Shown here in pieces: positions 10,351 to 42,000 of a DNA stretch of 64,000 bases. The notes beneath the pieces are model-generated. The model made no database searches. It had not been told where the DNA came from and saw nothing but the letters and a program-made list of their open reading frames with translations. The DNA is from a virus: the IMG/VR virus record IMGVR_UViG_3300020455_000616. One strand, 5' to 3'. Position 1 is the stretch's first letter. Every line of letters starts with the position of its first letter. A program made the position numbers and the translations under genes.

Positions 10351-10357
10351 TATTTAT
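10351..10357 (-). promoter_or_regulatory. T4-type late promoter (ATAAATA) upstream of gp8
   Basis: Plus-strand tatttat about 28 nt before the gp8 ATG. Confidence 0.6.
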
Positions 10358-13300
10358 TATGAAATAATATAACCCTTATAACGAAGTGGATTTTTTCTTC
10401 TTATAACTGGGTTAGATCCAATACCAGACTGACTGGTTCCATGAACTGCTTCAAATATTTGTTTTGTTCCTAATCTGATAGTTAGATTAACTTTACCCCA
10501 AGTATAATCACCATAACTTGCAGTTGTACCGTATCCAACTACATTTGTAAAGTTAGCAATCTTAGCAACAACAGTTGTAACCGTAGTTGCAATACCAACA
10601 GAAGTTCCACTTATTTCGGGTGGAATGAACCTAGTATTATGAGAGTAGTGAGCAACTTCAAAAGTTGCATCCATACAAGTAGTGCCAATTCCAAGAACAG
10701 AATTATCTGCTCTTAGTGTTGTTAAAGGACCATTGACACCTGTTCCTGTAACATTGAATAGATATCCAGTTTGAATTCCACTCTGTACTAAAGAGAATCC
10801 AGATTTTAATTTAGAATCCTGAGGTATATAGAAATCAAAGGTAATTCCAGTTGATGCAACACCGACAATGGTAGTTGTACCAATACCAACAATTATTCCA
10901 TAATCACCTTCAACAGTTGATTTTGGCACATCTTCAACTTTTCTTGTTGGTGGAGCAATCATAACTTCAGGTCCACTAATAGCACCAACAGTAAATTTAA
11001 TTGGAGTTGTAAGTGCCCATCTTCTATTAGTAGTTCCTAATCCAACGTTATCATATACATCAACAGATAATGTATCACCTGGTTGATAACCAGTTCCACC
11101 TTCAACAATTGATATAGCAGATACTTCATAATTTAAAGTGCTAATATCAATATTAATAGATGCACCTCTACCAGATCCAGTTACACTATTTAATTTAGCA
11201 CCCAACATTACATTGGTTGAAGCATCTAAGAATGGGAATCCAATACCATTCTGAGCAATACTAAGAGAAGTTAACGGTCCAAATATGTAACCAGTTCCAC
11301 CCATACCAACAGAAATACCAGTAACAGTTCCACCTGCCCCAATAGTAGCAGTAGCAGTAGCAGCAGTTGCAACTCCTACAACATCAAATGGTTTTTGAAC
11401 AGTAACTATTGGAGCAGCAGTGTATCCAAAACCAGGATTGGTAACGGTAATAGCACTAACAGCACCATTAGAGATGGTAGTTGTTGCAGTTGCATATTCA
11501 ATATTTTCTTGGGTAATAAGTTCTACCTTCTCTCTATCTGCAGCTAACATCGCTTCTTTAGGATCATCAAATAGAGATCTCAAAGAATATACAAATACTG
11601 AACTAGAATTAACACCAATAGTCTCAAGAATGTTAGTTTGTGGGTTAATTACTGGTTCATAATAAACTCTATCTTTACCAACTTCATTAGTATCAATAAT
11701 CTTATCAACATCTTGCTTAGACCAAGAAATTGGTCTTGTTAACAGTTCATTTGGTGTAACACCTTGACCCGCATAGTTATTAGTTGTAACAGAGTCTGCT
11801 GACTTAACATCCATAACAAGACGTTCATCTTGATTGAATGTAACATCAGTATCACTATAAAGTTGAACATCATCACCCACTTTAAGTGTAGGTAATACAT
11901 CAACTTCTCTAACATCAATACTTTGTGTACCAGTATACATTAAGACTTTACACTTATCTCCAGTTGTAGTAAATCCTGTTACACCACCCTTCGGTGCTTC
12001 TGAGAATCTAAGAGTACTACCTCCAGTAAAGGTATAACCTTCACCAGGAGTTTGTAGTATGTCATTAACAAATACTAATAGGTTAGATTGCAAATTAATA
12101 CCTGCGTTTGCTCTTGCAAAGAATGATATTCTGTCGCCATTAACTGATAATGGGAACAATCTTCTAGTTCCATTAAAGAATGGAGTAATGTCGTCAAGAA
12201 CTAAGAAATCACCAACGTTCCAACCAGAGAACTTAGATGCATAAGTCTCATCAACAGTTAACTGGAATTCACTGTAAGATCCAACTCCAACAAATTGGTG
12301 GACATATCTCTTACCAATAGGAGCCATGCCAACATTCATTCTAATAGTTGTTGGAGTTGTAGAAGCAATACCAACACCACCATAAATTGGATCGGTTTTT
12401 CTTGGATATGCATTCTTAGAACCATAGTTATCACTAGAACATGTGAATATTAAAGATTCATTTGCAAGTCTAATTCTATCTCCTGTCTTCAAACTATGCT
12501 GTCCTACAGTAAGAATCATTTCACCAGTAAATCCATCATAATCAGCATCCATAACCTTAAATCTCTTCTCAGCAGGTGCTTTACCAATATTCAAACTAAT
12601 TGTATTAGCAGTTGTTGCTCCAACTGATACTGCACTGTTGTAATAAGGATCTGAAGTTGTAATACCAGACTTACCAACATCAATTGTAATTGTGGTTAAA
12701 GTAGTTGCTGCAATACCTATTGTTGCATTGTGTGCTGGATCTGTTGTACGTGGGTAAGGATGCTCTGTACGATAATCATCCAAATCACAGGTAAATGTTA
12801 TACCTCCTGTGATAATACCAACAGTATTAGAACCTGCAGTTAAATTGTGTTCTGGGAATGTTAAAACTAGATTACCAGTATTACCATCATAATAAGCAGC
12901 AGTTGGTGTTAATGCAGTTCCTACATTAGGTACAACAGATCCAGCAGCAGATCTTACAAATCTTGTTTCATTTTTAGTAGAACGAGGATAACTATGTTCA
13001 CTTGAGTAATCGTCCATCTCACATTTGAATGTAAGACCATTTTCACTTAAACGAATAGATTCACCTGCCTTTTGAAGACCGTTTGCAGATGCAGAGACAA
13101 ATGTATGTGGATAGTTACCACCAGATCTTACTGCATTTGTTGCACTGCTAAGACCAGCAATAAATCTATGATCAGAATCAGTACCAATACCAACAAATAA
13201 TGTAATTGAGGTATCACCTACACCAGTAATAGGAGTACCAATTCCAGAAATAGGGTCAGTGCCTGGACGAGGATATTGATGAGCAGTTGCGTAATTATCT

Positions 13301-16300
13301 TGAGAACACTGGAAGTTAATACTATTGTCTGCAATTAAAATAGGTTCTCCTATATTGAGATCATGTTCACCAATTGCAAGAGTCATATATCCAGTAGATG
13401 AATTGTATTCAGCACCTACAGGAGTGTAGTAAACAGTAACAGATGCACCAACCATAACATCAATGTTATCTGTAGTAACACCAACAACAGGCAACCACTT
13501 ATTACTGCTAGGATCAGTTGCTCTTGGATATGACTTCGCAGAAGCATTAGGATCTAAAGTACAAGTAAAGTTTACCGAATTATCAACAAATCTAACTCTA
13601 TCACCAACAGTAATTGCATTAAGTGTTGTAATTCCTGCAAGAGTCAACGACATACCACCAGTACCAGCATTATACAATGCATGAGTCACTGTATAGTCCT
13701 CAGAACCCTTTAATCCATGATCAGGGATCGTAAGTACCATTTCACCAGTTACTGGGTCATAGGTAGCATTATTAACAGAATACCCAACAGTAGTGGATGC
13801 TCCAACATTAATAGTAATCGTATTTGTATCTTTTGCGGTAATTGCAGTTACACCATAACCAAGAACAGGATCACCAGGTCTTGGATATGCATGATTAGTT
13901 GCATCACCATCCATCAAACACTTAAATGTAATTGCACCTGTTGAGAGTCCAACAGTTTGACTAGTTGTATATGGATGACCAGCAATGGTTAAAACCATAT
14001 CACCAGTAGATGCATCATATGTCGCATCAGTTGGTGTAAAGTTTCCAACACCAGTTACTGATACTCCATTAGTTAAAGCACTTACAAAAGTATGAGCGTA
14101 TGCACCACCACTAATAACAGCACTATTTGCTGCACCAACAAAGGTATGTGGATAGCGACCACCATAAACTACTGGTTTAACAGCATTTGATGTCTTAGTA
14201 GCAAATGTTGGGATTCCAACAGTACCACCAATAGCAACAGTTAGAATATCATCTGAACCATATGCATATCCAAATTTATTGATTTCAAAATTACTAACAC
14301 CACTTACATTACTAACTTCAATATCAACAGTTGCACCAGTTCCTAATCCAGTTATTATATTGTCTTCAGAGTAAATTAATGGTATATCTTCATAACCAAG
14401 GGGAGAATCAACTCTAACTTTTATGTCTTGAGTAACTTCACCTGCTCTCTTATAGAAGTGTGCATAAGGAGAGATTCCAGAATCACACTCAAATGTATAC
14501 TCATTAAGAATATTAGTTACCGCAGTTCCATCAAATGCAACGTCCTGAGTAGATGGACTGTTATTAACTGCTCTAGGTGCAAGAATAATCTCTTCTAGAT
14601 AACCACCAGACTTATAATAAGTTGGTACATTAGCAACACCAACATTAATTTCAAACTCTGTATTTGAATTAATTCTTGATACCTTAGTTCCCGCATAGAT
14701 TGGGTCACCTGCTCTTGGATAACGATGTTTAGTAACATTACTATCTTGAGAACATGTGAATACTAAAGATCCAGTAGCAACTTTAACACTAGTTCCTTTG
14801 CTTAGATGATGTGTACCTATACCTAATACTAAGTTACCAGTTGCGGGGTCATATGTTGCAGTAGATACACCATAAGGAATAATAGTTGATATACCAACAT
14901 CAACAGTAATAGTATCAGAAGTTGTTGATGCAACACCAATAGTCTTTCTGTAAATTGGATCAGTTCTACGTGGATATACATGCTCACTACCATGTTTGTC
15001 CATATCACAAGACAACTTAATAGATTCTGTTGCGATTCCGATTGTATTTTGTGCTATCTTAATACCATTTGCTGCAGCAGCAAAGAATGCATGAACTGAA
15101 GTATTTGTAGAAGGAATAGATTCTAATACTTGAACTTCAAAAGTTGTTATTGAAGTTACATTTGCCTGTAACCAATTAGTTCCTGCAGGGTCTGCTGCTC
15201 TTGGATATTTGTGCTCTGAATTAAAACTATCTAATCCACACTTGAATGTTAAAGATTCGTCAGCAAACTTAATCCATTGTCCATTAGTTATATTGTGTCC
15301 ACCAGATACTGTACAAGTTAAAATACCTGTATTACCATCATACGCTGCTCCTGTTGCAGTAGTAGTTGCTGCACCAGATAAGTTATGATTTGGAATTGTT
15401 AGTACAAGAGAACCGTCAGTAGCAGCATATGATACATTAGTTGGAGTATATTTGGTATTTGTTCCACCAACACTAATCGAGTCTGTTTCAGCACTAACGA
15501 ATAGATGATTATAAACACCACCAGTACGAAGAACAGATCTGCTTATTCCACCAGTAGTAGCAGATACAAATGTATGAACACCCACGTTTGTAGATGGAAT
15601 AGTATCTAAAACTTGAACATCAAAAGTATCTGTAGTGATATTAGTTGCTGCAATCCACTTATTATTGATTGGATCAGTTGCTCTTGGATAAGCATGATTT
15701 GAACCATGACCATCTTGAACACAAGTAAATGTTATTGCACTTTGAGCAATTCCAACATAATCCCCATCTCTGAATGGATGATTAGCGATAGTAAGTGTCA
15801 TTACACCTGTAGTGGGGTTATATGCCACTCCAGTAGGTGTAAAAGTATCTGCACCATCAAATGTATGCGTAAACTGGTGCTTAGGACCAGAAGGACCAAC
15901 ATCTAATGTAATTGTACCGTTATTATGTGTAAGACCGTTATTACTTGCTGATACAAATGTATGAGCATCTACATTAGTAGATGGAATAGTCTCTAGTACT
16001 TGTATCTTAAGGGTATTAACAGTTGTATTGGCAATTCCTACCCACTGACCATAAATTGGATCATTCTTTCTAGGATAAGAATGTGTTGAAGCATGATTGT
16101 TTTTAGCACATGTAAATGTTAATGATTTTTCAGCAAGTTTAACTTTATCACCAACATGGAATCCATGATTATTGATAGTCAACGTCATAATACCCGTTGT
16201 TGGGTTATATGCTGCGTTACTTACTGTATGGTCAGTTCCATCCGCAATAATTGCAACAGAAGTATCTGTAATTGTATCTCTATTTCTAGGATAGGTATGA

Positions 16301-19300
16301 ACTTCAGTACTCATACCACAAGTCATTCCTAATCCAGTTAATGCTATATCAGTACCAACTTTAAGTTTATGACCAAGGATTACTTCACCACCACTTACAT
16401 AAGAATGAGGAATTGTAGAAATTCCTGCTTGGAATGTAAGAGTGTACATATTTGGAGCATCTATGCAAGCAAAGGTATCTCCAGTTGGTGAATTCTGAGC
16501 ATTGCCTGGGAATATGCTAGTAGTAATACCAACTTGAACAACACCTCCATTGTTCCATGTATGTCTTATACTTGATACACCAACATTAGTAGTGAATGAA
16601 GTTGCTGCTACACCAATTGTCTTAAATGAATATCCTTGTGATCCATCTGGGAAGACAGATGTAGTAATACCAGCATTAACTGTACCACCAGACACATAGG
16701 TATGTGGTAATGTAGAAACACCTGCATTAAATGTAAATTGATTTGATGTAGGAACAGTAAGTGCTGTAAATGTATATCCTTGAGTTCCATCTGGATATAT
16801 TGAGTTACCAAATGCACAGTTGAGACCAATATTGTCTAATCTAACTTCACTACCAACTCCAATAACACCTGCAATAGATGTTGCAGTAGTTACAGTACAT
16901 AAACCAGTTAAATTATCATATGTAAATCCATTAATACCAAATTGTTGACCATATCCTTCAGCACCACCAAGAGGACATGTAAAGTTTAATTGTCTTAGTT
17001 TAACATCCTCAGTTGCAGTTAAACCATGATTACCAACAGTAAATATTGTTGCAATACCAGTTGTTTGATCGTATTGAGCACTATGTACTGCGAATGTTTG
17101 ACCATAACCCACACAAGTTAAGGCAATTCCAGATAAAGCAAATGTTCTACCAACTGCAGTCTGTTTAACAATATTATGAGGTAATGTCGTAGTAATAGTT
17201 GCAATACCAGTGGTATTTGTATAAATGAAGTCACTGATTGGAACAGAAGTTGAAGCAACAGATACTGTCATAATACCAGTAGTATTATTGTATACTGCAT
17301 TGGTAAGATCAATAGGTGCATAGTAATCACAAGTGAATGCTGCACCAACAACAGTAATCTCATCACCAAGGTCTAATCCATGCTTTTGAGTTGTTTGTAT
17401 AGTGGTTATTCCAGTGATAGAACTATAACCAACGTTAATAATATTTCTTGGTTTATAGAATCTTGCAACCCTATCTACAACTACATCAGTAACATGTCCA
17501 CCAGTTATAGTTGCATTACCAACATAAGTGTAACTTGCTATTCCTACACTTCTAGTTTGAATGGCAACACCAACTGTTTGTAATCCAGATCTATATCCAG
17601 ATCCAGTAAGACCTATAGCAACTGCAGTAATAGTACCAGCACTTGATACAACAGCAGTACCACCTGCAGCAACTAATGGTTGGAATCCATATCCGTCTGT
17701 TGATCCAACACTAACGATAATTCCACCTCTTGGAACATCATTAACATTAATATCTTTATTAGAATCATAGTCAGATATCGTACCATTGAACCCTAGAAGC
17801 GTCTGTGTATTGCTATTGTGTTGTTCAATCTTATAATCACCTTGTATGGTAGTTATTTCATTACCAAGTCTCTGTGGACCTTGGAAGATATCATTTATAA
17901 GAACAATTGCATTACCTGCAGTAATAGTATCAATATCATTACCCTTATACTTTAATATAAAGGAAGTTGTTATTCCATTAAACTTACTTGATAGATCATC
18001 AAATACAAAGTTATTATCGTATGCTTTAACAAAACTAGTTGTGAATGCTTCATTAATTGCAGATCTTAAAAATACTCTTCCACTAAATCTACTGCTAGTT
18101 GTAAGTCCAGTATAATCAATCTCATTACTATCTGTAGCAGTTGTACCAAAACCAATTGGTTGATTACCCCATGCTGCTTCACTAAAATGAATATCATTCT
18201 CTACAATACTAAAGTTACCAACTAACTTTGTAATTGTAGATAATCCAGCATGAGTTGCTGCAGTACTACCCATCCATGCTCTTCTTACAGTCAATAAATT
18301 ATTAGTTTTATCAACACCAGCAACCAACATGGTTTCATCATTAACTTTGACTAAATCACCACTAAAGATTGATGAAATACCACTTATACCAAATACAGTA
18401 GTACCAACACCAACACTAGATGAACCAACAGCAAAAGTATTACCAGTTGCTACAACAGGTGATTGAATTGTGCCATTAACTGTTAATAGTAATCTATTAT
18501 TTGGATCTTTTCCTCTAAAGATATGAGTAGTTCCAATACCAACACTAGCAATACCAACAAATACAGGATTAAACCTAAGTGAATCAGTAGCAGATACTGC
18601 AACCTGTACCTTTTGATTATCAAGTTTAATTACATGGAATGATCCTGGAAGTTTTGTAGTAGTTCCAATTCCTGGTCCAAAGTCTGTAGAATCAATTACA
18701 ATGGCATTTGCAAAGTCATTACCAGGTGGAATATATTCAATTTCTTCACCAGATACGAAGTAATGATTAACAAGATTAATTGACTGTTCGTTAGTGTCTA
18801 CAACAGTATCATCACTACCATCAAATGATTGTTCAAAAATTGGATCACCTGCACAGAATAAACCAAAATCTCTTTTTACACCATCAAACTCAGCACTAAA
18901 ATCGTCAATAGGAAGAACTCTGTTACCAATAAATTCTTGATATTTTGCTAAGAATGGTAATCCAAAGAGAATCTCATTAGATACCAATTTATTGTTTACA
19001 GTAATTGCCTTTTCTCTTGCAGTATCAAAGTCCTTAATCATGTTAAGGTCAACAACACTAGTTAAGTCAGATACTGCAATAAATGCATTTAAGTCTTGTG
19101 CTGTACCCATTCCAACGATAGATGGGTCATATGAATCTGCTAATAACTCACCAAACTTCTTATACCCAGTAGTATGGTTTAGATTACTTACATAAGCATT
19201 CCATTTTTCAAATGATATAGAAGATCTTACTGCATATGAGAAGTACTGATAATAATCATTATCATGCATTCTTTGGAAGAATCTATTTAACTTACCAGTA

Positions 19301-22300
19301 TCTTTTAAGAATCCCTTCTTAGTAATACTATTAGAACTAATTGAATATGTACCCTTAATTCCATCAACAGAAGATATCAATCCTTGGTTTTGAGTAGATT
19401 GACCAATAATTACATCACCTTTATTAAATTGATCTGCAGATCTTACTTTTAAGAACTCGTTCCTATTATCATAGTCTTGAACTACACCACTATTATCAAG
19501 TTGGTTAGTAATAAACTCACCTTTTGCAAATGAATCCTTCTCAAGGAATACTTCAAATGTTGGGAAATATGATTCTGGAGTTATAGTTCCAAATGATTCA
19601 AAACTATCAAATTCACCAGGTTGTTCACCAGGATTTAATAGTCCACTTAAACTATACTTAATTGTTGGGAAGTCACCACCAACATTAGCATCTGCTTCAG
19701 TAAGAGTGAATAACTTATATGCATAAGCAGCAGAGTTATATCCTCTACCAACTGAATTAAGAGTATTAGTATTCTCAACTAGTATTCTATTACCAACTTT
19801 ATATGGATAAGCATCAATAGATGAGAATGTTACAGCAAATGCAACAGTAACATCTAAAGTAGAAGAGTCAAAAGTAATACTATCAATCCTTGTACCATTA
19901 GGATTATTAGTTGGCATTAAAACTGGAGTAACATTATACAAACCAGTTGTATTTCTAACAATTTCTACTTCAGTATCACCAACATCATATCTTAAGAATG
20001 CTTCAGTATTAACACGACCAGTAAATCCATCAACAACAACTATATCAGGTGTTAAGAAGTAATTAACGCCAGGATCTTTAACCTTAACACGTTCAAACTT
20101 AGATAGTGGTTCAATTTTATATGTTGCTGGTAATGAGGCAGCAGGTCTCAATGTATTGTCTGCAGGATAGTCAAATCCAATATCAGTCAATACTACCTCA
20201 TTAAGTTTACCAATAGATCTACTTCTTGGGAGGAATAGTGCTCCTGTTCCTGCAGCACTAACAACTTTAGAGACATATGGAAGACTCTTATATCCAGCAC
20301 CACCAGAATCTAATGCAATTGTACCAACAGGTCCAGTAGCAGTAGCAGATGTTGTTTGATAGATGATAGCTGCTTCACCTGTACTGTAAGATGGTCTTTC
20401 TGGAGTATCAAACAGAGTATAATTAAAGGTATTAGTAGTTAAACCACTAACAGTTGTTTTTGCATCATATTTACTACTAACTATAGATAACCTGTTTGGA
20501 TTAGTGATTTGGAAGGTATCACTAAGCATTTCAGTCTTAGAAGCAGCAGCACCAGAACTCTTAATTGGTTGTAGATTATAATAGAGATTATTTGGAGTAC
20601 TCTTATCAATAATTAAAGTTAAGTTTGCATTTTGCTGTCCAATAGTACCATTTTTCTTTACATGGAAGTCTAAAACAATAGTTGATATACCAGCATTTGC
20701 TTCAGAAGTGAAATATAGATCAGTAAAGGCAGAATCTCTAAAGACATTAAAGTCAAAGGCAGATAGTCCACTATTTGATAATGAAGAATCTGATAAGTCA
20801 AAAACAACAGTATTATTACGATATGCTTTAATTTCTGGGTTAATAGGACTAAATGTACCAAATGATGCTGAAGATATACCAACAATTTGGACTCCTTCAT
20901 TAGATGTTATTTGTTTATAGTAATTGTTAGATAACTTAATTGTATTTTGGTCAATAACAATTACATAATAGATTTGAGAATTATTAATTCCTCCAGTAGG
21001 ACTAGATGAGTTATGAAGAACTTTAGTACCTGTTGTCCATCCATGATCTACAATAGTAAACCTATTATTATCTGTATCAACATCCGCTTCAAGGAATCCT
21101 CTTGGATCAATTAATAATCTTCGATTACCATCATCATACTTAACAACAACAGTAGTTTGGATACCTGAAGTAACTGTTAAATCAACAAAATCACCCTCAC
21201 TTAAATAATGAGATGCACCAGTACTAACAGTAGCAGTCTTCTTAAGAATATCTCCAGTAATGATGTTATCATAAGCAGTTTTAAAACTATGTAATCTTCC
21301 AGTTCCTGGAGTATCAATAGTCAATAATCCCATAGATGCAGTAGTTCCAAGACCTACAAAATTACCTGTAGTTCCTATACCAATTTGGTTTGTTGATATA
21401 CCAATAAAGTTTTCGTCATGTACTGCAGCATATAATGTTGTGTTATCAGTTAAGTAATAACTTGTTCCTGAAGCACTTACGTTTGGACCACTACTTCCAG
21501 CACCAACATTGTATATAATCTTCTCACCAGTTTTTAATCCATGACCAGGAATATAGAAGGAATCCTTAATTGGACTAATCTTGTCAATACCTGCACCTGG
21601 ATTTTGTAAATATGTCTTACCTACCTTTTTAGCAGATGCTAAAACTTGAGTATCATAAGTTGCAATATAAGGAGTCATAAACTCACTTTGCTCAACTTGT
21701 AAACCTGCAACATAGAATATAGGTCTACTGTTTAAAGTTGCTCTAATAGTAGTTCCTGATCCTACAGCAACACCATCAGCACCAAACTTCATTCTATGAG
21801 GATTAGCATTAGTTGCTACAGTAAACTTGAATCTCTTCCAGTCTCTAGTAAGAGTTACTTTTTGATGATAGTAAACATTTACACCAGTATCTTGAAGAAT
21901 CATCCATACTTCTTCTCCACCTTGATCACCTTTTAAGAATGCAGATACTGTATGAACATTACCTGAAAGTGTAAATGTACCATTTTGTATTACGATGGTA
22001 TCAGTAGCAGACGTTGTTGTAGCAATTCCAACTTTAGCAGCAGAAATATTACCATCTGGAGTCTTAGAATGATAGAATGTTACTGTTCCTATTCCATTAC
22101 CTGCAGTTGCTTTAGTCCATGTACCACCAGTAAGAGAAGGTGATACAGGATCAGAATAAACAACTAAGTTCTCACTTATAACTCCAGCTACCTCTTCAGG
22201 TTCAAAATAAAGTGTTCTATCAATTTTATATTGAGTTGTAGTTTGGAATCCAGTATTAATAGTAAATCTTCTTGGATCTTCACTTAAAATATCACCACTT

Positions 22301-25300
22301 AGATGAGAAGCAAAGGTTGAAACTCCAGTAATATCTCTTTGTACTCTAATTCTCTTAGATGAACTATCAATATTCAATATTTTAACAATCTCAGAATTAA
22401 TAATATAGAAGTCATTTACAACAGTAGTTGGGAAAGTTAAATCACCATCCACACTGAAATATGTCGTAATGCCTGTAGATTGGGCAGTACCAACATTATT
22501 CCTTAAAACAAGTTGGTTAGTAGAGACACCAACAGTATAATTTTTAGATAACTCTGTAGATAATAAATTTAGATTCTGTAAATCTATAATATCACCAGCA
22601 TTAAATTCATGAGAAACAGTTCCAAATCCAACAAATCTACCTTTACCTAAAGTTGGAGTAAACTGTATATGATTAAATTTCTTAGTAGTATATGTAATAT
22701 TAGTTACTTCTGGTCCTAAAATTTGCCCTATACGTGCATATGCGCCACCACCTTGAGTTCCTTCATCATTAAAGAAGATATTATCAGAAATATTATACTT
22801 ATCACCTGGTGCAATAATATTAAGTGAATCGACTGCTCCTGAAGATGCTGATACAACCTCAGTAAAACCTTCACTGAATACATTGGGTTGAAGGAATCCT
22901 TTATACCTAGAGTTTTTACCTCTAATACCATATTGACTGGTATAACGTATATAATTACCATCATTTAGATTAGTAAAACTTAAAGTAGCAAATTGACTGA
23001 AATTATAAGTTTGAGGTAATCCTTTAAATTGAGGACCTATAGCATATGGGAATACTGGTTTTAGATACCCCGCAAATGGTCCTGCAACCTCTGCAGAAGC
23101 GTCAACTGTTAAGAAGTAAGCATATGTACCATTAGGGAATTCAGGGGTCTTACAGAAGCGTCCATTGAACTCATCTAAATCACCTTTACCAACAAATTTA
23201 TAATCTTCGATAAACATACCAGATCCATAACTTGGTGGTCTGATACCAGACACATCAACTCTTAATTCATAACTGGTTTCTATTCTCTTAACTGCACCAC
23301 CCTCTCTATCTGCATATCCATAAGGACCATAGATTGGGAATCCATCAAATGCCCATCCTATAATAGGAGAGTGGTATTTGTCTGTATTAGTTTCGTTTAA
23401 TATGTCTGCTCTAAAAATTACACTTCCATCAATGTCAATTGAAGTTGATAGAACCTTTCTTCTAAGTTCTCTAGGAGCAAATGCATGTGTATACTCAATC
23501 TCTTTACTAGAATCAAGTGAAAGTGCCAATACACCATCATCTTGAGGTATTTCACCTGTTAACATCAATTTTTGTACTAAGTTAATAGTCCAAGATTTAA
23601 TTTGAGCATTAAATTTAGCACCACTACCAGTTGATATAACAAATAGATTTGTATTAGTGTTTTTATAACCAAATCCACTATTAATAATTTTTACATCAAC
23701 AAGTTTACCATCAACAATAATTGGATTTAAGATTGCACCATTACCATCACCAGTAATCTCAATAACTGGTGGAGAGTTATATCCAGATCCTGAATTATTG
23801 ATAATAATATCAATAATCTTACCTTCAGATGATACTAGTGGACTTACTTGTGCATTTTCACCATTTATTAAACTAATTACAGGTTGTCTATTATAGTTAA
23901 GAATTTCAGCATCACCATAATTTTCACCATGAGAACTTAACGAGATAGATTCTATATCACCAGTAAATACGGGATTAATTTTTGCTCTAAAGTCTTGTCC
24001 TGCAAAAGTTCCAACACCAATTGGTCCTTCAATCTTTACTTCAATTGGAGTGTATACTAGTTTGTGAATTCCTGTTCCAGTATCTGGGAAATCAACAAAT
24101 CTATTATTAACGTAATAGTAATCATCACCAAGACTATCACCAGTACTAACAATTCTTCTCTCAGCAAGTCTAATATTATCTTTATCTATTACATTGACTA
24201 AAAATTGTGTAGTTGAAGCAACACCAACAGGGAAAGAACCACCTTCATTAATGAATTGTACAAGTTCCCTATCTTTAAGACTATGATCCTGAATATTGAG
24301 TTTGTTATCAAATATATCTACCTTAGATGGTTGGAAATAAAGGGTTTTATTCCTATAGTCATAACCAGCATTAACAACTTCAATAGAAGATATAACCTTT
24401 TTCTTCTCAAATGCTTCTATAGTTTGTAGACCAGAACCATATGTGGTTATTCCTACAGTATTAATTCCAATAATAGCATCATCTATATTGGTATGAAGTT
24501 TAATTGATTTTTCATCTACAAGACTAGCAAAATAGATTGCTTGATTGGATAGTCCACCTAATACTGCTTGATCTTCAGATTTGTATATAACCTTCTCTTG
24601 AGGTCTTAATTTGTGGTATGTAGCAAACCCAATTACATTAGTGGCAAGATCTACATCAATATACTCTGCACCTGCATTAAAATTAATCTTATGAGTAAGG
24701 TTGGATACATTACATTGCGCTTCTGCACCAGTACCTTGACCACCAGTAATAGTTACTTTTGGAGTTGTAATATAATCAAAACCAGTTTCAATTACATCAA
24801 TTCTCTTTAAAGACCCATTAATATTACATACACCAGTAGCACCTGTACCAACATTAGTAGTTCCTGCTCCAATACCATCTTCAATATGTAATGCTGGTGG
24901 ATTAATTACATCATAATTTGAATCACCAGATGAAGTAACCTGAACCTCGTCAATTTGACCATAATATACTAAATCACTAGATTTATAGTTTGTTAATTCA
25001 ACTCCATTAACAAACATACCAGTTTGTCCAGGTGTTGTATCAACTTGTACTCCACCTAATTTTGGTTTACTAAACTTTCTAACAAGATCCTGTCTTTTAA
25101 GAGATTTTCCTCTAAAATCAAGTAATTCAAGTTTATTATTTGTTACTGTACCAAAAACACTTATAAAAATACCATTCCTAATATTTGATTTACTAGTAGC
25201 AAGACTAATTGTACTTGCATTTACCTTTTTAATAAAATACTGCCCTTCGGGTATATTAAGTGGAATATTATTATTAGCACTATACCAAACAGGGTCACCA

Positions 25301-27051
25301 GTAAAGAATGGATTTGATCCAATTATTAACTGATCTCCATTAAACTGTCCACTAAACAACATTGATAGTGGTTTTGGATCTATTGGGGTATTAAAGTAAT
25401 CAGGTAATGAAGGTGATACAGCATATGTGTTATCATCATCGTCAATATACATGTTCTGCATATTTGCAGACATATTTGCCAATTCAGGAAGATTGACAGC
25501 AGCAACTTTTGATATCCCTCGTCTAATAATATATTTTACATTTACAATAGGAATATTAGCAGGTAAGTTAACATCAAAACTCTTATCATCCGCAACACCA
25601 AGAACACTAACATCATAAACAGTGCCATCATTAGCAGTTAGTGTACCAATGTCACCTAAAGTGAATACATGAGAATCAAATGTCTCTACTCTATATTGAG
25701 CAGCACCATTAATGTTATTTGTTAGTTTTACTAATCCAGCAACATCATATTCTGGTGTAATATTTAAAATCCAACTCTTAAGAATTTGATCTTCAGAATC
25801 ATGACCAAGAGAGACTATTTCTACTTGATCTCCTTCTTGATAATAGTTAGATCCTTGTCTGTCAAAGGTTAATTGACCAAGAACACCACTTATTTTAACT
25901 CTTATCTCTTCACCAGCAGAATTAATAGTATATGCAAAATCTGGTGTCTCAACAGTCGTATCAACAGGGATACTAATTGGAGAACTTAAACCAAAGAATT
26001 GAGTAGATGACTTAGATGTGTATGAAATCTCATAAGTAACTCCATCTACAACTACACTTAAAATGCCAGAATCAGGGAAACTAATAGTAGAATCAACATC
26101 TATCCAAACCTGATTTAAACCTACTGCTGCAGTAATTTTAGTTTTAGGATGTACTGAAAATTTAAACTGCTCAAGATCAGGGTTATAGTCTAAACTTAAT
26201 CTGAAATATGATACTCCATCTTTAATTATCTCTTCTACTGAAGTAATAGAACCAGTTGCTTTTACAAGATTAGGTGTCTCATCTTGGAAAAGAGTTCTAT
26301 TTACTAAGTCATTTGGATCACCTTGTAATTGCTTAACAACTAAATCTCTAACAATTCTATAATCCGCATCTGATGCTTGCAGTAAAAAGTCCCTTGGTTT
26401 AACAATTGATACATCAACACCAAAAATTACCTTAAAAAGTATGTCAAAGGATGATGTAGAACCTTTAGAAGAATAGAAATCTTTTAATCTAGATACAATA
26501 TTCTTTTCATTTACTGCATCAAAGAATTTAACCTCTTCAAAACCAGGTGTATATTGCTTCTTAAACTTCTTATAAAACTCAAATAGGAATAATGCATGTA
26601 AATTATAAACAACCGTGTCAGAGGCGTGTGTAGACACCCCTGTTTGACTAAAAATAAGACTGTCGTCTTCTTGTCCCTTATAAGAGGTTATTCCACTAAA
26701 TCCTCTTGAGCAATTAACAAAGGAGACAGGAGTTTTTGATTCATAACTGATAATCTCACTATCAATTTGAATTAAACCGTTATTATCAGGAAAACCTTGT
26801 GTATTATCTACTTCTATTGTATCAGAGAACAAATCACTACTAGATGTAGTATTTGTTGTATAGACTAATTCAGATAAATTCTCTAACCTTACATATTGAT
26901 CAATATTATTAAGTATATCAGTAGGACCAGCAGGAGACTCCAATGATCCATAGTAAGACCTAAGAAACCCCTGAAATTCAGGAAAATTATCTTTTACAAA
27001 ATTGGGAAGATGATCCTGTACTAAATGACGGACCTTTACTCTATTATGCAT
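10357..27051 (-). CDS. gp7: Giant baseplate wedge initiator gp7-like protein (5564 aa)
   Basis: N-terminus ...LPNFVKDNFPEFQGFLRSYY...KDFYSSKGSTSSFDILFKVIFG; MHDNDYYQYFSYAV..HTTGYKKFG motif; lies between gp6 and gp8. Confidence 0.85.
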   Translation of the reverse strand: MHNRVKVRHLVQDHLPNFVKDNFPEFQGFLRSYYGSLESPAGPTDILNNIDQYVRLENLSELVYTTNTTSSSDLFSDTIEVDNTQGFPDNNGLIQIDSEIISYESKTPVSFVNCSRGFSGITSYKGQEDDSLIFSQTGVSTHASDTVVYNLHALFLFEFYKKFKKQYTPGFEEVKFFDAVNEKNIVSRLKDFYSSKGSTSSFDILFKVIFGVDVSIVKPRDFLLQASDADYRIVRDLVVKQLQGDPNDLVNRTLFQDETPNLVKATGSITSVEEIIKDGVSYFRLSLDYNPDLEQFKFSVHPKTKITAAVGLNQVWIDVDSTISFPDSGILSVVVDGVTYEISYTSKSSTQFFGLSSPISIPVDTTVETPDFAYTINSAGEEIRVKISGVLGQLTFDRQGSNYYQEGDQVEIVSLGHDSEDQILKSWILNITPEYDVAGLVKLTNNINGAAQYRVETFDSHVFTLGDIGTLTANDGTVYDVSVLGVADDKSFDVNLPANIPIVNVKYIIRRGISKVAAVNLPELANMSANMQNMYIDDDDNTYAVSPSLPDYFNTPIDPKPLSMLFSGQFNGDQLIIGSNPFFTGDPVWYSANNNIPLNIPEGQYFIKKVNASTISLATSKSNIRNGIFISVFGTVTNNKLELLDFRGKSLKRQDLVRKFSKPKLGGVQVDTTPGQTGMFVNGVELTNYKSSDLVYYGQIDEVQVTSSGDSNYDVINPPALHIEDGIGAGTTNVGTGATGVCNINGSLKRIDVIETGFDYITTPKVTITGGQGTGAEAQCNVSNLTHKINFNAGAEYIDVDLATNVIGFATYHKLRPQEKVIYKSEDQAVLGGLSNQAIYFASLVDEKSIKLHTNIDDAIIGINTVGITTYGSGLQTIEAFEKKKVISSIEVVNAGYDYRNKTLYFQPSKVDIFDNKLNIQDHSLKDRELVQFINEGGSFPVGVASTTQFLVNVIDKDNIRLAERRIVSTGDSLGDDYYYVNNRFVDFPDTGTGIHKLVYTPIEVKIEGPIGVGTFAGQDFRAKINPVFTGDIESISLSSHGENYGDAEILNYNRQPVISLINGENAQVSPLVSSEGKIIDIIINNSGSGYNSPPVIEITGDGNGAILNPIIVDGKLVDVKIINSGFGYKNTNTNLFVISTGSGAKFNAQIKSWTINLVQKLMLTGEIPQDDGVLALSLDSSKEIEYTHAFAPRELRRKVLSTSIDIDGSVIFRADILNETNTDKYHSPIIGWAFDGFPIYGPYGYADREGGAVKRIETSYELRVDVSGIRPPSYGSGMFIEDYKFVGKGDLDEFNGRFCKTPEFPNGTYAYFLTVDASAEVAGPFAGYLKPVFPYAIGPQFKGLPQTYNFSQFATLSFTNLNDGNYIRYTSQYGIRGKNSRYKGFLQPNVFSEGFTEVVSASSGAVDSLNIIAPGDKYNISDNIFFNDEGTQGGGAYARIGQILGPEVTNITYTTKKFNHIQFTPTLGKGRFVGFGTVSHEFNAGDIIDLQNLNLLSTELSKNYTVGVSTNQLVLRNNVGTAQSTGITTYFSVDGDLTFPTTVVNDFYIINSEIVKILNIDSSSKRIRVQRDITGVSTFASHLSGDILSEDPRRFTINTGFQTTTQYKIDRTLYFEPEEVAGVISENLVVYSDPVSPSLTGGTWTKATAGNGIGTVTFYHSKTPDGNISAAKVGIATTTSATDTIVIQNGTFTLSGNVHTVSAFLKGDQGGEEVWMILQDTGVNVYYHQKVTLTRDWKRFKFTVATNANPHRMKFGADGVAVGSGTTIRATLNSRPIFYVAGLQVEQSEFMTPYIATYDTQVLASAKKVGKTYLQNPGAGIDKISPIKDSFYIPGHGLKTGEKIIYNVGAGSSGPNVSASGTSYYLTDNTTLYAAVHDENFIGISTNQIGIGTTGNFVGLGTTASMGLLTIDTPGTGRLHSFKTAYDNIITGDILKKTATVSTGASHYLSEGDFVDLTVTSGIQTTVVVKYDDGNRRLLIDPRGFLEADVDTDNNRFTIVDHGWTTGTKVLHNSSSPTGGINNSQIYYVIVIDQNTIKLSNNYYKQITSNEGVQIVGISSASFGTFSPINPEIKAYRNNTVVFDLSDSSLSNSGLSAFDFNVFRDSAFTDLYFTSEANAGISTIVLDFHVKKNGTIGQQNANLTLIIDKSTPNNLYYNLQPIKSSGAAASKTEMLSDTFQITNPNRLSIVSSKYDAKTTVSGLTTNTFNYTLFDTPERPSYSTGEAAIIYQTTSATATGPVGTIALDSGGAGYKSLPYVSKVVSAAGTGALFLPRSRSIGKLNEVVLTDIGFDYPADNTLRPAASLPATYKIEPLSKFERVKVKDPGVNYFLTPDIVVVDGFTGRVNTEAFLRYDVGDTEVEIVRNTTGLYNVTPVLMPTNNPNGTRIDSITFDSSTLDVTVAFAVTFSSIDAYPYKVGNRILVENTNTLNSVGRGYNSAAYAYKLFTLTEADANVGGDFPTIKYSLSGLLNPGEQPGEFDSFESFGTITPESYFPTFEVFLEKDSFAKGEFITNQLDNSGVVQDYDNRNEFLKVRSADQFNKGDVIIGQSTQNQGLISSVDGIKGTYSISSNSITKKGFLKDTGKLNRFFQRMHDNDYYQYFSYAVRSSISFEKWNAYVSNLNHTTGYKKFGELLADSYDPSIVGMGTAQDLNAFIAVSDLTSVVDLNMIKDFDTAREKAITVNNKLVSNEILFGLPFLAKYQEFIGNRVLPIDDFSAEFDGVKRDFGLFCAGDPIFEQSFDGSDDTVVDTNEQSINLVNHYFVSGEEIEYIPPGNDFANAIVIDSTDFGPGIGTTTKLPGSFHVIKLDNQKVQVAVSATDSLRFNPVFVGIASVGIGTTHIFRGKDPNNRLLLTVNGTIQSPVVATGNTFAVGSSSVGVGTTVFGISGISSIFSGDLVKVNDETMLVAGVDKTNNLLTVRRAWMGSTAATHAGLSTITKLVGNFSIVENDIHFSEAAWGNQPIGFGTTATDSNEIDYTGLTTSSRFSGRVFLRSAINEAFTTSFVKAYDNNFVFDDLSSKFNGITTSFILKYKGNDIDTITAGNAIVLINDIFQGPQRLGNEITTIQGDYKIEQHNSNTQTLLGFNGTISDYDSNKDINVNDVPRGGIIVSVGSTDGYGFQPLVAAGGTAVVSSAGTITAVAIGLTGSGYRSGLQTVGVAIQTRSVGIASYTYVGNATITGGHVTDVVVDRVARFYKPRNIINVGYSSITGITTIQTTQKHGLDLGDEITVVGAAFTCDYYAPIDLTNAVYNNTTGIMTVSVASTSVPISDFIYTNTTGIATITTTLPHNIVKQTAVGRTFALSGIALTCVGYGQTFAVHSAQYDQTTGIATIFTVGNHGLTATEDVKLRQLNFTCPLGGAEGYGQQFGINGFTYDNLTGLCTVTTATSIAGVIGVGSEVRLDNIGLNCAFGNSIYPDGTQGYTFTALTVPTSNQFTFNAGVSTLPHTYVSGGTVNAGITTSVFPDGSQGYSFKTIGVAATSFTTNVGVSSIRHTWNNGGVVQVGITTSIFPGNAQNSPTGDTFACIDAPNMYTLTFQAGISTIPHSYVSGGEVILGHKLKVGTDIALTGLGMTCGMSTEVHTYPRNRDTITDTSVAIIADGTDHTVSNAAYNPTTGIMTLTINNHGFHVGDKVKLAEKSLTFTCAKNNHASTHSYPRKNDPIYGQWVGIANTTVNTLKIQVLETIPSTNVDAHTFVSASNNGLTHNNGTITLDVGPSGPKHQFTHTFDGADTFTPTGVAYNPTTGVMTLTIANHPFRDGDYVGIAQSAITFTCVQDGHGSNHAYPRATDPINNKWIAATNITTDTFDVQVLDTIPSTNVGVHTFVSATTGGISRSVLRTGGVYNHLFVSAETDSISVGGTNTKYTPTNVSYAATDGSLVLTIPNHNLSGAATTTATGAAYDGNTGILTCTVSGGHNITNGQWIKFADESLTFKCGLDSFNSEHKYPRAADPAGTNWLQANVTSITTFEVQVLESIPSTNTSVHAFFAAAANGIKIAQNTIGIATESIKLSCDMDKHGSEHVYPRRTDPIYRKTIGVASTTSDTITVDVGISTIIPYGVSTATYDPATGNLVLGIGTHHLSKGTSVKVATGSLVFTCSQDSNVTKHRYPRAGDPIYAGTKVSRINSNTEFEINVGVANVPTYYKSGGYLEEIILAPRAVNNSPSTQDVAFDGTAVTNILNEYTFECDSGISPYAHFYKRAGEVTQDIKVRVDSPLGYEDIPLIYSEDNIITGLGTGATVDIEVSNVSGVSNFEINKFGYAYGSDDILTVAIGGTVGIPTFATKTSNAVKPVVYGGRYPHTFVGAANSAVISGGAYAHTFVSALTNGVSVTGVGNFTPTDATYDASTGDMVLTIAGHPYTTSQTVGLSTGAITFKCLMDGDATNHAYPRPGDPVLGYGVTAITAKDTNTITINVGASTTVGYSVNNATYDPVTGEMVLTIPDHGLKGSEDYTVTHALYNAGTGGMSLTLAGITTLNAITVGDRVRFVDNSVNFTCTLDPNASAKSYPRATDPSSNKWLPVVGVTTDNIDVMVGASVTVYYTPVGAEYNSSTGYMTLAIGEHDLNIGEPILIADNSINFQCSQDNYATAHQYPRPGTDPISGIGTPITGVGDTSITLFVGIGTDSDHRFIAGLSSATNAVRSGGNYPHTFVSASANGLQKAGESIRLSENGLTFKCEMDDYSSEHSYPRSTKNETRFVRSAAGSVVPNVGTALTPTAAYYDGNTGNLVLTFPEHNLTAGSNTVGIITGGITFTCDLDDYRTEHPYPRTTDPAHNATIGIAATTLTTITIDVGKSGITTSDPYYNSAVSVGATTANTISLNIGKAPAEKRFKVMDADYDGFTGEMILTVGQHSLKTGDRIRLANESLIFTCSSDNYGSKNAYPRKTDPIYGGVGIASTTPTTIRMNVGMAPIGKRYVHQFVGVGSYSEFQLTVDETYASKFSGWNVGDFLVLDDITPFFNGTRRLFPLSVNGDRISFFARANAGINLQSNLLVFVNDILQTPGEGYTFTGGSTLRFSEAPKGGVTGFTTTGDKCKVLMYTGTQSIDVREVDVLPTLKVGDDVQLYSDTDVTFNQDERLVMDVKSADSVTTNNYAGQGVTPNELLTRPISWSKQDVDKIIDTNEVGKDRVYYEPVINPQTNILETIGVNSSSVFVYSLRSLFDDPKEAMLAADREKVELITQENIEYATATTTISNGAVSAITVTNPGFGYTAAPIVTVQKPFDVVGVATAATATATIGAGGTVTGISVGMGGTGYIFGPLTSLSIAQNGIGFPFLDASTNVMLGAKLNSVTGSGRGASINIDISTLNYEVSAISIVEGGTGYQPGDTLSVDVYDNVGLGTTNRRWALTTPIKFTVGAISGPEVMIAPPTRKVEDVPKSTVEGDYGIIVGIGTTTIVGVASTGITFDFYIPQDSKLKSGFSLVQSGIQTGYLFNVTGTGVNGPLTTLRADNSVLGIGTTCMDATFEVAHYSHNTRFIPPEISGTSVGIATTVTTVVAKIANFTNVVGYGTTASYGDYTWGKVNLTIRLGTKQIFEAVHGTSQSGIGSNPVIRRKNPLRYKGYIIS
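12300..17450 (-). repeat. Array of ~100-110-aa internal repeats in gp7
   Basis: 12 copies of a YPR(xxDP) motif within units like AxYxPxTGxMxLTIxxH...LTFTC..D...HxYPRxxDP...HTFVSA, plus divergent units upstream. Confidence 0.9.
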
Positions 27052-29595: not shown

Positions 29596-29623
29596 AATAA
29601 AAAAGCATCCGTGGAGGATGCTT
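29596..29623 (-). terminator. Rho-independent terminator
   Basis: 8-bp stem aagcatcc/ggatgctt, 5-nt loop, U-tract on the minus strand. Confidence 0.85.
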
Positions 29624-39719: not shown

Positions 39720-39747
39720 ATTATACTATCTCCTTCATTTTTGTCAA
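39720..39747 (-). promoter_or_regulatory. Sigma70-type promoter TTGACA-N16-TATAAT
   Basis: tgtcaa 39742-47 and attata 39720-25. Confidence 0.75.
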
Positions 39748-40576: not shown

Positions 40577-40828
40577 TTACTGCTCCCAGTACATAGCATT
40601 AAACTCTGCTATGTTAAGATAGTCATCATTATGACAATTTTGTAGAGAATCTACATCCTCTTCTCCATTATCATTATATGGGATGAATACAAATTCTTCG
40701 CAGAAGTATTCAACTGCAATACCACCAAGTCGTTCACACGCTCGGAGCATATCACCTATCTCATGATCTTCCATACCACATATGTCAATGCAAAATGCGA
40801 TATCACGTTCTAATTGAGTTTGAGACAT
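40577..40828 (-). CDS. Conserved cyanophage hypothetical protein
   Basis: LERDIAFCIDICGM...ACERLGGIAVEYFCEEF. Confidence 0.75.
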   Translation of the reverse strand: MSQTQLERDIAFCIDICGMEDHEIGDMLRACERLGGIAVEYFCEEFVFIPYNDNGEEDVDSLQNCHNDDYLNIAEFNAMYWEQ

Positions 40829-40846
40829 TGGATTTATGCAATGAAT

Positions 40847-41201
40847 AAAAAAAACAGCAAGGTCAAGAGGTGCTTCACCTGACTACATTAGACTTACAGG
40901 ACGTAATTTCCCTGCTGAACAGAGACAACCATAGATCCTTGCAATGGACAGGTACTAACTCATGCTGCGGTTAGTGTGAGAGGAACGTGGGGCACTGATC
41001 TGGGTTTCACCCATGTTGCCCAAATTTACCCTATGGGAATCGCTTACACCTGAACCCCCAAACTTAATCGGGGCATAGGAACCACATAAGTTACCTCTGC
41101 GGTCATCAACTGGAGGGGAAGTCAATTACCTTAACGTCATGTCTCCGCTTCTCACCAAAAATGGAATGTCGGAGTAGTTAAGAACCTCACTTATGTTGAT
41201 G
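40847..41201 (-). ncRNA. Large (~355 nt) multi-domain structured RNA candidate
   Basis: Own extended -10, at least 10 nested helices, terminal U8, no substantial ORF. Confidence 0.7.
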
Positions 41202-41206
41202 AACCT

Positions 41207-41244
41207 ATTATAACACAATAAAAAAGCATCCGTGAAGGATGCTT
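41207..41244 (-). promoter_or_regulatory. Terminator fused to extended -10 TGT-TATAAT (drives the ncRNA)
   Basis: Hairpin region 28/29 identical to the terminator at 29596-29624; TTCACG-N18-TATAAT. Confidence 0.8.
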
Positions 41245-41263
41245 AGGACAGTTTTATAATTGG

Positions 41264-41974
41264 TTACGGTGTGGGTGGTGTGTTAAAATTATATGGATGA
41301 AGTTTACCTGTATATTCAGGTTGTTCTCCTCCTGCTAATTCCTCTGGTGATACACCTCCAGTTCCATACATACCTGCTGGATTGCTCATAGAAGACGCTA
41401 CAGCAACTGTTGATTCACCACTAACTCCAGTACTATATGTTCCGTAATACCCTGTAGGATTTGCTTCTGCTGATGGTACAGGAGGATTAGGATTAGTGAA
41501 GTCTGCTGTTGTAACTGGTTCAACATAATATGGTCCAGCAGCATCATGATCATAATATCCTGCTGGATATGCGTCACTTGATGCTATACTGACCTCACCA
41601 CACATTTTTGTATCAACATTAAATGTTTGTGCATCTGTATCTGCTATACTAACATGCACATCACTATGACCATCAACAAAATATGCTGCTGTTGGATATG
41701 CTGCTGTATTACCAGCACCTGTTAATGTTATATCATCAGATGTAATGGTTACTGGATATGTACCTGTAGGTGCATCAAGCAGGTCAACTGCTCCACTAAC
41801 CTTATCTACCTTTTGTCTATAATAGTCTAACTGACTATTCAATTCTGCTTTAAACTCATCAATAATAACTTGTGCTGTTACTCCAGCATCACTCAAGTAG
41901 TCCGCAATAACAGATCTAAGTTTATCTCTTCTGTTATGTTCGTAATTTGACACTAACTGTTCCTCATTTGTCAT
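41264..41974 (-). CDS. Hypothetical protein: helical N-terminus plus Y/P/G/A/T-rich extension
   Basis: ORF directly behind a perfect promoter; start MTNEEQ. Confidence 0.75.
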   Translation of the reverse strand: MTNEEQLVSNYEHNRRDKLRSVIADYLSDAGVTAQVIIDEFKAELNSQLDYYRQKVDKVSGAVDLLDAPTGTYPVTITSDDITLTGAGNTAAYPTAAYFVDGHSDVHVSIADTDAQTFNVDTKMCGEVSIASSDAYPAGYYDHDAAGPYYVEPVTTADFTNPNPPVPSAEANPTGYYGTYSTGVSGESTVAVASSMSNPAGMYGTGGVSPEELAGGEQPEYTGKLHPYNFNTPPTP

Positions 41975-42000
41975 GTTATCCACCAAATTAATACTAGGAC

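Follow-up and report, generated by a model that had tools for sequence, protein, structure and literature searches.

The minus strand of an uncultured marine cyanophage-like virus carries, between positions 41201 and 40847 of the window (the whole 64,000-nucleotide stretch of DNA that was analyzed), four autonomous, separately folding RNA modules, not one multi-domain molecule. We call them E, A, D, and B, the last nested in the hairpin tip of D (Table 1). In each module, helices form a scaffold that frames internal-loop or junction strands of almost fixed sequence, and each scaffold possesses one tolerant hairpin tip that accepts other modules. Comparison across relatives shows that all four modules keep their helices by compensatory changes and that, by this measure, the fold of each is real, conserved, and strand-specific.

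Table 1. Modules, helices, conserved strands, and flanking signals, listed in the order of transcription (window coordinates).
Feature	Position	Strand	Basis or remark
Terminator hairpin and U-run of upstream gene	41218..41244	minus	hairpin 41244-41224; terminator scan
Extended -10, TGnTATAAT (predicted)	41215-41207 (TATAAT 41212-41207)	minus	promoter scan, 10/12 with TG
Module E, irregular hairpin	41104..41201	minus	covariation, relatives
E helices, outer and second	41201-41195/41110-41104; 41188-41185/41116-41113	minus	
E helices, inner	41182-41177/41135-41130; 41174-41170/41147-41143	minus	
Module A, three-way junction	40979..41098	minus	covariance model R1 and covariation
A helix P1	41098-41094/40983-40979, plus 41092-41090/40986-40984	minus	
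A helix P2	41085-41082/40990-40987	minus	
A helix P3	41079-41074/41035-41030	minus	
A helix P4	41073-41068/41061-41056	minus	
A helix P5	41021-41018/40993-40990	minus	
A helix P5a	41013-41010/41004-41001	minus	
A near-invariant single strands	41056-41035, 41029-41022, loop 41009-41005	minus	
Module D	40854..40968	minus	covariation, 19 copies
D helix P1	40968-40961/40861-40854, bulged A 40960, then 40959-40955/40866-40862	minus	
D helix P2	40953-40949/40881-40877	minus	tip carries module B
D conserved 10-nt bulge	40876-40867	minus	
Module B, nested in D	40886..40946	minus	covariation, 71 copies
B helices	P0 40946-40942/40890-40886; P1 40939-40935/40902-40898; P2 40925-40920/40914-40909	minus	
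B loop	40919-40915	minus	UUCAG
U8 run	40854-40847	minus	directly after closing helix of D
First downstream ORF, 83 aa	40577..40828	minus	starts 18 nt after U8; no family match

Module A is a three-way junction with about 40 near-invariant unpaired nucleotides. A covariance model of A, called R1 and seeded with a 34-sequence alignment that includes the window sequence, has a single match in the window (125.8 bits; model positions 1–127 of 127; 41101–40974), while independent copies score 53–151 bits. The window copy is matched over its full length, with P1 to P5a and the invariant junction strands all present, and counts as a member of the family on that basis. In the seed alignment, 96.7% of cells are paired and 18 pairs have changed on both sides; across the 101 copies that R1 identifies in 100 sources, 93.9% of cells are paired and 25 of 32 pairs have changed on both sides. 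None of 500 shuffles reaches the values observed for the 101 copies, and slid controls fall to 31–54%. The 22-nt junction strand exists exactly in at least 120 IMG/VR contigs; without its last base (21 nt), it has no exact copy in 185,579 prokaryote genomes. A second, independent pattern recovers variants of A, in which only three junction-strand positions vary. The tolerant site is P4, a plain hairpin in 46 of 122 copies; the other 76 carry inserts of ~30 to 210 nt, and these inserts are other modules. A mutual-information search for tertiary pairs in A returned only the nested helices; the junction strands, because they are invariant, are uninformative to this measure. The 3′ strand of P1 was compared with the Yfr1 motif ACUCCUCACAC (PMC2518516) and the comparison was dropped: the match is inexact, and the copy of A in the window lacks it.

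Module E, an irregular hairpin, is present in 54 distinct copies in related loci. In its core, the two inner helices, 96.2% of cells are paired across 17 copies, 9 of 13 pairs have changed on both sides, and 0 of 500 shuffles reach the covariation score. The innermost helix occurs in eight Watson–Crick variants, it is flanked by the conserved strands AGAAGC and ACAUGA, and its loop is the insertion site, housing B, D, and other inserts in some copies.

Module D was compared in 19 distinct copies (95.1% paired; 7 pairs changed on both sides; 0 of 500 shuffles). Its closing helix changes completely between lineages, and a C-G/G-C swap connects the two conserved strands of P1. Two G-U pairs are invariant in all 19 copies, which makes the fold of D strand-specific. 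P2 has four compensating variants, and its tip holds nothing, a small hairpin, other inserts, or, as in the window, B. The conserved bulge of D was considered, by eye, as an anti-Shine–Dalgarno mimic; it did not fit.

Module B aligns without indels in 71 distinct copies, with 93.9% of cells paired and a covariation score reached by 0 of 500 shuffles. Its P1 is 99.7% paired with five pair types, and its P2 is 100% paired with two fully compensated variants; one U-G pair of the module is invariant. The internal loops and a GUAAGU bulge are conserved. The B pattern is present in at least 120 IMG/VR viral contigs, and neither the pattern nor the invariant strands of B have a match in the 185,579 prokaryote genomes. 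Host mimicry by A or B was set aside, as the invariant strands have no exact copy in those genomes. Some short strings recur between modules: UCAGGUG followed by (U)AAGC is common to A (41054–41042) and D (40882–40872), UUCAG is common to the junction of A and the loop of B, and GGUAA follows the 3′ strand of P3 in both A and E. These strings, common to otherwise unrelated modules, may represent a shared recognition element or common descent.

Folding energy tells a different story. The minimum free energy (MFE) of the region is no better than that of shuffled sequence (z-score −0.30). The comparative structure comes to −76 kcal/mol (−87.7 when enforced) versus −97.8 kcal/mol for the unconstrained minimum, and energy minimization alone mis-folds 41201–40847. 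Thus, with stability at chance level, the evidence for structure is the covariation.

The original prediction, made from the letters of this one DNA, proposed 13 helices, and eight of them hold. The pairing CAUCAAC/GUUGAUG, which it had named as an alternative, is assigned as the outer helix of E by analogy with the outer helix of relatives. Covariation bears out seven others: CUUAAC/GUUAAG and CUCCG/CGGAG are the inner helices of E, CCUAUG/CAUAGG, CCCCGA/UUGGGG, GGGCA/UGCCC, and UGGG/CCCA belong to A, and UCUCUG/CAGGGA belongs to B. The remaining five are contradicted, including all three domain closures and two arms. In the preferred 5′ closure, ACAUAAGU/ACUUAUGU, four close relatives have a U replaced by G in the 3′ strand with no compensating change opposite, and that strand belongs to A. 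The pairing ACUAAC/GUUAGU has an uncompensated A-to-U change in the related locus L133; its GUUAG is the conserved P1 strand of D, whose partner is UUGAC. The closure GCAAGG/CCUUGC is broken in L133 and in a second related locus, L102; the real closure is the outer part of D's P1, a perfect 8 bp in L133. Of the arms, UUACG/UGUAA competes with the almost fully paired P1 of B, and AGGUG/CACCU goes uncompensated where P2 of D changes. A single integrated multi-domain RNA does not survive this comparison, as its three closures carry uncompensated changes in L102, L133, L017, or L160. Likewise, what had been separated as domains 2 and 3 is one module, A, closed by P1 and P2. These two helices, P1 and P2 of D, and P0 and P1 of B had no place in the earlier reading.

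Autonomy is visible in how the modules are distributed. When a 6-kb query and the 436-nt gap that houses the modules were compared with 50,697 phage records, nucleotide similarity ran through the RNA only. The matching records are P-SSM2, P-SSM5, and five single-cell records named "Marine virus AG-345," with identities of 72–98% and flanking genes that cannot be aligned. In the complete genome of P-SSM2, A (by R1) and B and D (by pattern) occur once each, within 55.9–56.9 kb; the window has one copy of A by R1. In P-SSM4, Syn9, P-HM1, S-SM1, and S-SSM7, R1 detects no copy of A, and the B and D patterns detect no copy of either module; A, B, and D are absent from these five other cyanomyovirus genera. 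The kit is found here in P-SSM2, P-SSM5, and uncultured relatives, a single phage lineage. The E pattern has no match in P-SSM2, whose copy of E is a sequence variant.

Among the relatives, the modules stand alone, reordered, nested in each other's hairpin tips, or split into two transcription units around an ORF. An ORF separates one piece on its upstream side from the others on its downstream side in P-SSM2 and AG-345-L05, each behind its own TATAAT, and in AG-345-E15 one module sits inside the hairpin of another. Module B alone can follow A, occupy P4 of A, the loop of E, or the tip of D, or form a unit of its own ahead of an ORF. At the 93 loci with enough flank, the neighborhood of A, out to 1.2 kb, contains E at 52, B and a further F-type module at 30 each, an H-type module at 21, and D at 19; about a dozen of the listed A copies stand without a neighboring module. 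In the window and its closest relatives, L102 and L133, the four modules follow one another within a single unit. The locus L160, a close relative, matches the window through the upstream cassette, E, and the beginning of A on its 5′ side, and then continues with different modules and a different ORF, which suggests that units have recombined at or within modules. The modules lie on the same strand as their neighbors, the exception being one antisense chance match in 93 loci.

The arrays nearly always reside in 5′ untranslated regions, often 15–50 nt before a start codon, and U-rich tracts are common before downstream start codons in related loci. At 130 loci, the ORFs that come first after A sort into 28 unrelated clusters, the largest of which has 23 members. 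Thus, gene-specific control is unlikely. We note one recurrent gene–module pairing, the only one seen: the PSSM2_070 family (phrog_1987; 144–149 aa; L001 2637–3086; also L012, L034, L041, L054, L089, and others) very often directly follows E. The family carries no functional annotation and has no match in Pfam or PDB. In AG-345-L05, the ORF between the two RNA units (L004 1638–2042) has a weak match to the antirestriction protein ArdA (E = 0.0048; 18 bits; below the Pfam cut-off), which hints that module cassettes may lie among early anti-defence genes.

Further module types are recognized by motif only, for example at L001 2555–2610, L003 1430–1495, L004 2120–2210, and downstream of A in L016 and L065. 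An F-type module (GGAGAUGGAUGUGCC...) is usually the last before a U-rich tract and an ORF; G-type (GGUGAGAGUCC...), H-type (CCCUUUGGURGUUUCAG), and I-type (UCAUUUUGGAU) modules also recur. None of the F, G, H, and I types has an Rfam family. In P-SSM2, the gap between PSSM2_068 and PSSM2_070 (L001 2340–2640; 55.82–56.12 kb) has a TATAAT that is followed by three modules: the E variant, B, and one of F type. The P-SSM2 record has no annotated feature in this gap, and locus tag 069 is missing.

The modules are absent from Rfam and are undescribed within the literature we searched. At gathering thresholds, Rfam 15, with manA, wcaG, PhotoRC-I/II, tmRNA, RNase P, group I and II introns, known ribozymes, and riboswitches among its families, has no match in the 64-kb window or in 125 kb covering 17 related loci, and at E ≤ 10 the region 40700–41350 gives chance-level matches only. 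ARAGORN finds no tRNA or tmRNA gene in the window. These results agree with the original prediction, which saw no hallmarks of tmRNA, RNase P, or group I introns and could assign no named family, and they include no full-length match to a characterized family such as manA, wcaG, or PhotoRC. Full-text literature searches found no published description of the modules. Hammerhead, k-turn, T-loop, and tetraloop-receptor motifs, compared by eye, did not fit them. A group I intron or homing element was suggested by the P-SSM2 BLAST pieces, which lie 800 bp apart around an ORF; this reading was abandoned, as the pieces are permuted in two separate units, each bounded by a promoter, the flanks do not make up the halves of a split gene, and the intervening P-SSM2 ORF (phrog_1987) has no nuclease or PDB match.

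The unit occupies a 436-nt ORF-poor gap on the minus strand, between the stop of an ORF at 41264..41986 and an ATG at 40828. The boundaries first given for it, 40847 and 41201, were right with respect to promoter, ORF-free stretch, and terminal U8. So was the claim that it holds no substantial ORF: no ATG or GTG ORF inside it exceeds 34 aa. The central claim, a non-coding structured phage RNA behind its own predicted promoter, is supported by the covariation and the −10 element, and the U-tract is present as U8. Coding potential was considered and rejected, as the ORFs are short and unconserved and an AUG in the 5′ strand of A is lost in covarying variants. Immediately upstream, the terminator hairpin of the preceding gene and the −10 that follows it make up a terminator–promoter cassette resembling the promoter-early stem-loop (PeSL) cassettes of T4-type phages. 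Close relatives have different hairpins at the same place. From this promoter, predicted to be an early one, transcription is predicted to start near 41200–41201, a position supported by stand-alone E copies that start 7–9 nt after a TATAAT-like hexamer in several unrelated contexts. The hairpin and U-run are repeated with one mismatch at 29597–29623 (minus strand), 11.6 kb away, with 0 such repeats expected by chance; cassette shuffling could be mediated by this repeat. Two giant ORFs adjoin on the minus strand (10357–27051, 5564 aa; 1027–8721, 2564 aa).

At the other end, the closing stem of D (40968–40955/40866–40854) is paired at 12 of 13 positions, with one A bulged out, encloses ~85 nt, and runs directly into U8. 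A closing helix followed by U6–U7 is kept in L102 and L133; the combination belongs to the window lineage only, being absent in P-SSM2, L003, and others. A simple terminator scan calls the upstream hairpin and does not call the U8 site. U8 is a candidate intrinsic terminator or attenuator, or else a candidate U-rich leader for the 83-aa ORF. The promoter scan finds none between U8 and this ORF. Because the next consensus promoter on the minus strand lies only downstream, at 39747–39720, the ORF is probably expressed by read-through. With a closing helix that abuts U8, an ORF 18 nt farther on, and no promoter between them, the unit may be a stable RNA, an attenuated leader, or both. Homologs of the 83-aa ORF (e.g., in L027, L127, and L133) constitute an acidic ~80-aa family directly downstream of module-A arrays at 11 of 130 loci; the family has no match in Pfam, PHROG, or PDB.

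The reading we favor, tentatively and at somewhat below even confidence, is that the modules serve autonomously as binding platforms and are produced together in one compact early RNA, with partial termination at the closing helix of D and U8. The notion is that host RNA polymerase would start at ~41200 and that the 5′ end would at once be locked in the outer helix of E. Transcription would continue through A and D with its nested B, whereupon the closing helix and U8 would stop part of the polymerases. Stopped polymerases would deliver a compact RNA of ~355 nt, and the remainder would carry on into the small early ORFs. The RNA itself would be the functional product. Specifically, each module alone would act early in infection as a specific binding platform, decoy, or scaffold, whose partner could be a host or phage protein or a small ligand; chaining and nesting would provide compact, nuclease-resistant co-expression only.

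Several observations point to binding platforms. Over more than 100 contigs, the strands of loops and junctions hardly vary, a pattern typical of specific recognition surfaces. The free order of the modules, and the existence of A alone, argue that no fixed mutual geometry is needed. One copy each of A, B, and D in a complete genome, P-SSM2, and one A in the window make the modules gene-like, unlike a general mRNA feature. Given that A, B, and D are single-copy in P-SSM2, the one complete genome behind this count, that their neighbors vary, and that unpaired strands of 10–22 nt are invariant, we infer that selection acts on the RNA itself and not on a neighboring gene. There are counterpoints: MFE stability does not exceed that of shuffled controls, the siting of arrays in 5′ untranslated regions fits a cis role equally well, and partial termination must be set against a scan that misses U8 and against the commonness of U-rich tracts before start codons. 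We also speculate, with low confidence, that the kit holds at least one new functional RNA class, be it an aptamer for a metabolite, a ribozyme that cleaves itself, or a decoy that engages an RNase or defence protein of the host. The prime candidate would be module A, and plug-in nesting would be a general route to composite early RNAs in P-SSM2-like cyanophages.

Nearly as likely as binding platforms, if doubtful in its own right, is a role as a general cis-acting early leader, which would protect the 5′ end from host 5′-end-dependent RNases (RNase E/J) or recruit ribosomes without a Shine–Dalgarno sequence, the U-tract being a ribosome landing site. Such a leader would account for arrays that, at almost every locus, follow an early promoter and precede the first ORF, an outer helix of E that begins at +1, the lack of a promoter between U8 and the 83-aa ORF, and the U-rich tracts that precede many downstream start codons. 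The "very complex leader" that the original prediction kept as a fallback is as plausible as its stand-alone non-coding RNA. However, a generic stabilizer would be expected on many early transcripts, whereas A, B, and D are single-copy in P-SSM2, and simple protection does not require invariant unpaired strands of 10–22 nt. That the leader senses a ligand we consider improbable. In this riboswitch-like scheme, one or more modules would be aptamers, and a ligand-stabilized P1 of D would complete a terminator before U8 and tune read-through into early ORFs. Covarying helices around invariant junctions do have an aptamer-like architecture, the 3′ strand of D's P1 abuts the U-run in the window, L102, and L133, and manA and wcaG have been proposed as riboswitch candidates (PMC2864571). 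Yet no consistent gene or pathway lies downstream (28 clusters at 130 loci), D lacks a following U-run in most loci, and nested, permuted modules make a conserved expression platform unlikely. Of the riboswitch criteria, an aptamer-like covarying fold is present, and association with one gene family or pathway is not.

We give equally little credence to the idea that the modules are processing signals or self-cleaving ribozymes, marking cuts made by themselves or by host RNases that would release module RNAs and define mRNA ends. The modules do sit between transcript parts and before ORFs, and B, like other modules, has a GUAAGU(CC)-type motif where it ends on the 3′ side. Against this stand the lack of any ribozyme or tRNA-like model match even at E ≤ 10, modules in which tRNA-like acceptor/T-arm geometry is not recognized, and the nesting itself, as a cut at an inner module would destroy the outer one. 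It is very improbable that the blocks are selfish or DNA-level elements, either recombination substrates that shuffle cassettes or mobile DNA, whose RNA has no function. This explanation draws on the more than 90% nucleotide identity to P-SSM2 amid otherwise unalignable DNA, on variable positions and recombinants (L160, with its E and 5′ half of A in common with the window), and on the PeSL-like cassette directly upstream. But compensatory change is extensive, with invariant G-U pairs that an opposite-strand transcript would turn into A-C mismatches; the modules keep one orientation with respect to transcription, and insertions occur only at hairpin tips with each fold preserved. Together, compensatory change, constant orientation, and tip-only insertion show selection on the RNA fold. 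Scarcely credible, finally, is one integrated ~355-nt machine, a large ribozyme or scaffold with domains acting together. Contiguity of the four modules in the window, L102, and L133 and the placement of the P-SSM2 modules within ~1 kb are consistent with it, but the three proposed domain closures fail in relatives, co-occurrence near A is partial (E at 52, B at 30, D at 19 of 93 loci), order and nesting vary freely, and the P-SSM2 set is split over two units with an ORF between.

How do these modules, read as separable platforms, relate to known phage RNAs? GOLLD and ROOL, both in Rfam, are large orphan RNAs carried by phages; they have several domains, some of them variable insertions, and no assigned biochemical role. 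Our unit resembles them in being a large, multi-domain, phage-borne RNA with variable insertions. GOLLD and ROOL, however, are single integrated folds, whereas the modules here are separable, freely reordered, and without an Rfam match. The stable RNAs C and D (species 1 and 2) of the T4 tRNA region are small non-coding RNAs, co-transcribed with other genes and still without an assigned function. They are akin to ours by description, as non-coding RNA of a T4-type phage; ours are modular and nested, and C and D are not known to be either.

Closer in habitat are manA (RF01745) and wcaG (RF01761), orphan structured RNAs of unknown function that are supported by covariation and come almost exclusively from marine metagenomes and T4-like cyanophages (Weinberg et al. 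2010, PMC2864571). Like these, our modules are orphan, structured, covarying, and usually in 5′ untranslated regions. Unlike them, the modules belong to a larger kit (at least A, B, D, and E, plus F to J by motif), nest in one another, and have no pathway link, and they match neither RNA in sequence or structure. PeSL cassettes were described in the T4-type phages RB49 and phi1, where recombination shuffles the cassettes that PeSLs delimit in hyperplastic regions (Arbiol et al. 2010, PMC2839356). By the definition in that paper, a sigma-70-like early promoter joined to a terminator stem-loop in an intergenic gap of a T4-type phage, the upstream cassette has the make-up of a PeSL: a terminator hairpin at 41244–41224 and a −10 at 41212–41207, intergenic and repeated in the window. 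Analogous to PeSL cassettes, the RNA units here appear to be shuffled by recombination. A PeSL, though, is a promoter and one stem-loop flanking an ORF, whereas the cargo here is a 355-nt multi-module RNA with no ORF; and PeSLs were described in RB49 and phi1, not in cyanophages, whereas this PeSL-like cassette resides in a cyanophage-like virus.

Here, we have described a set of RNA modules that is more conserved than any neighboring protein gene. Modules A and B are abundant in marine viromes (at least 120 contigs each) and are present neither in the 185,579 prokaryote genomes searched nor in Rfam. Among natural RNAs of bacteria or phages, it is unusual for intact folds to be permuted freely and nested at defined hairpin tips, and the module borders provide ready-made boundaries for biochemical dissection. 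Prochlorococcus and Synechococcus viruses turn over a large share of the ocean's primary producers, and the early phase of host takeover is poorly understood. The modules are predicted to be expressed from early promoters, and given that A, B, D, and a variant of E lie together within 1.1 kb in P-SSM2, a phage with a culturable host, the question of their role is directly testable.
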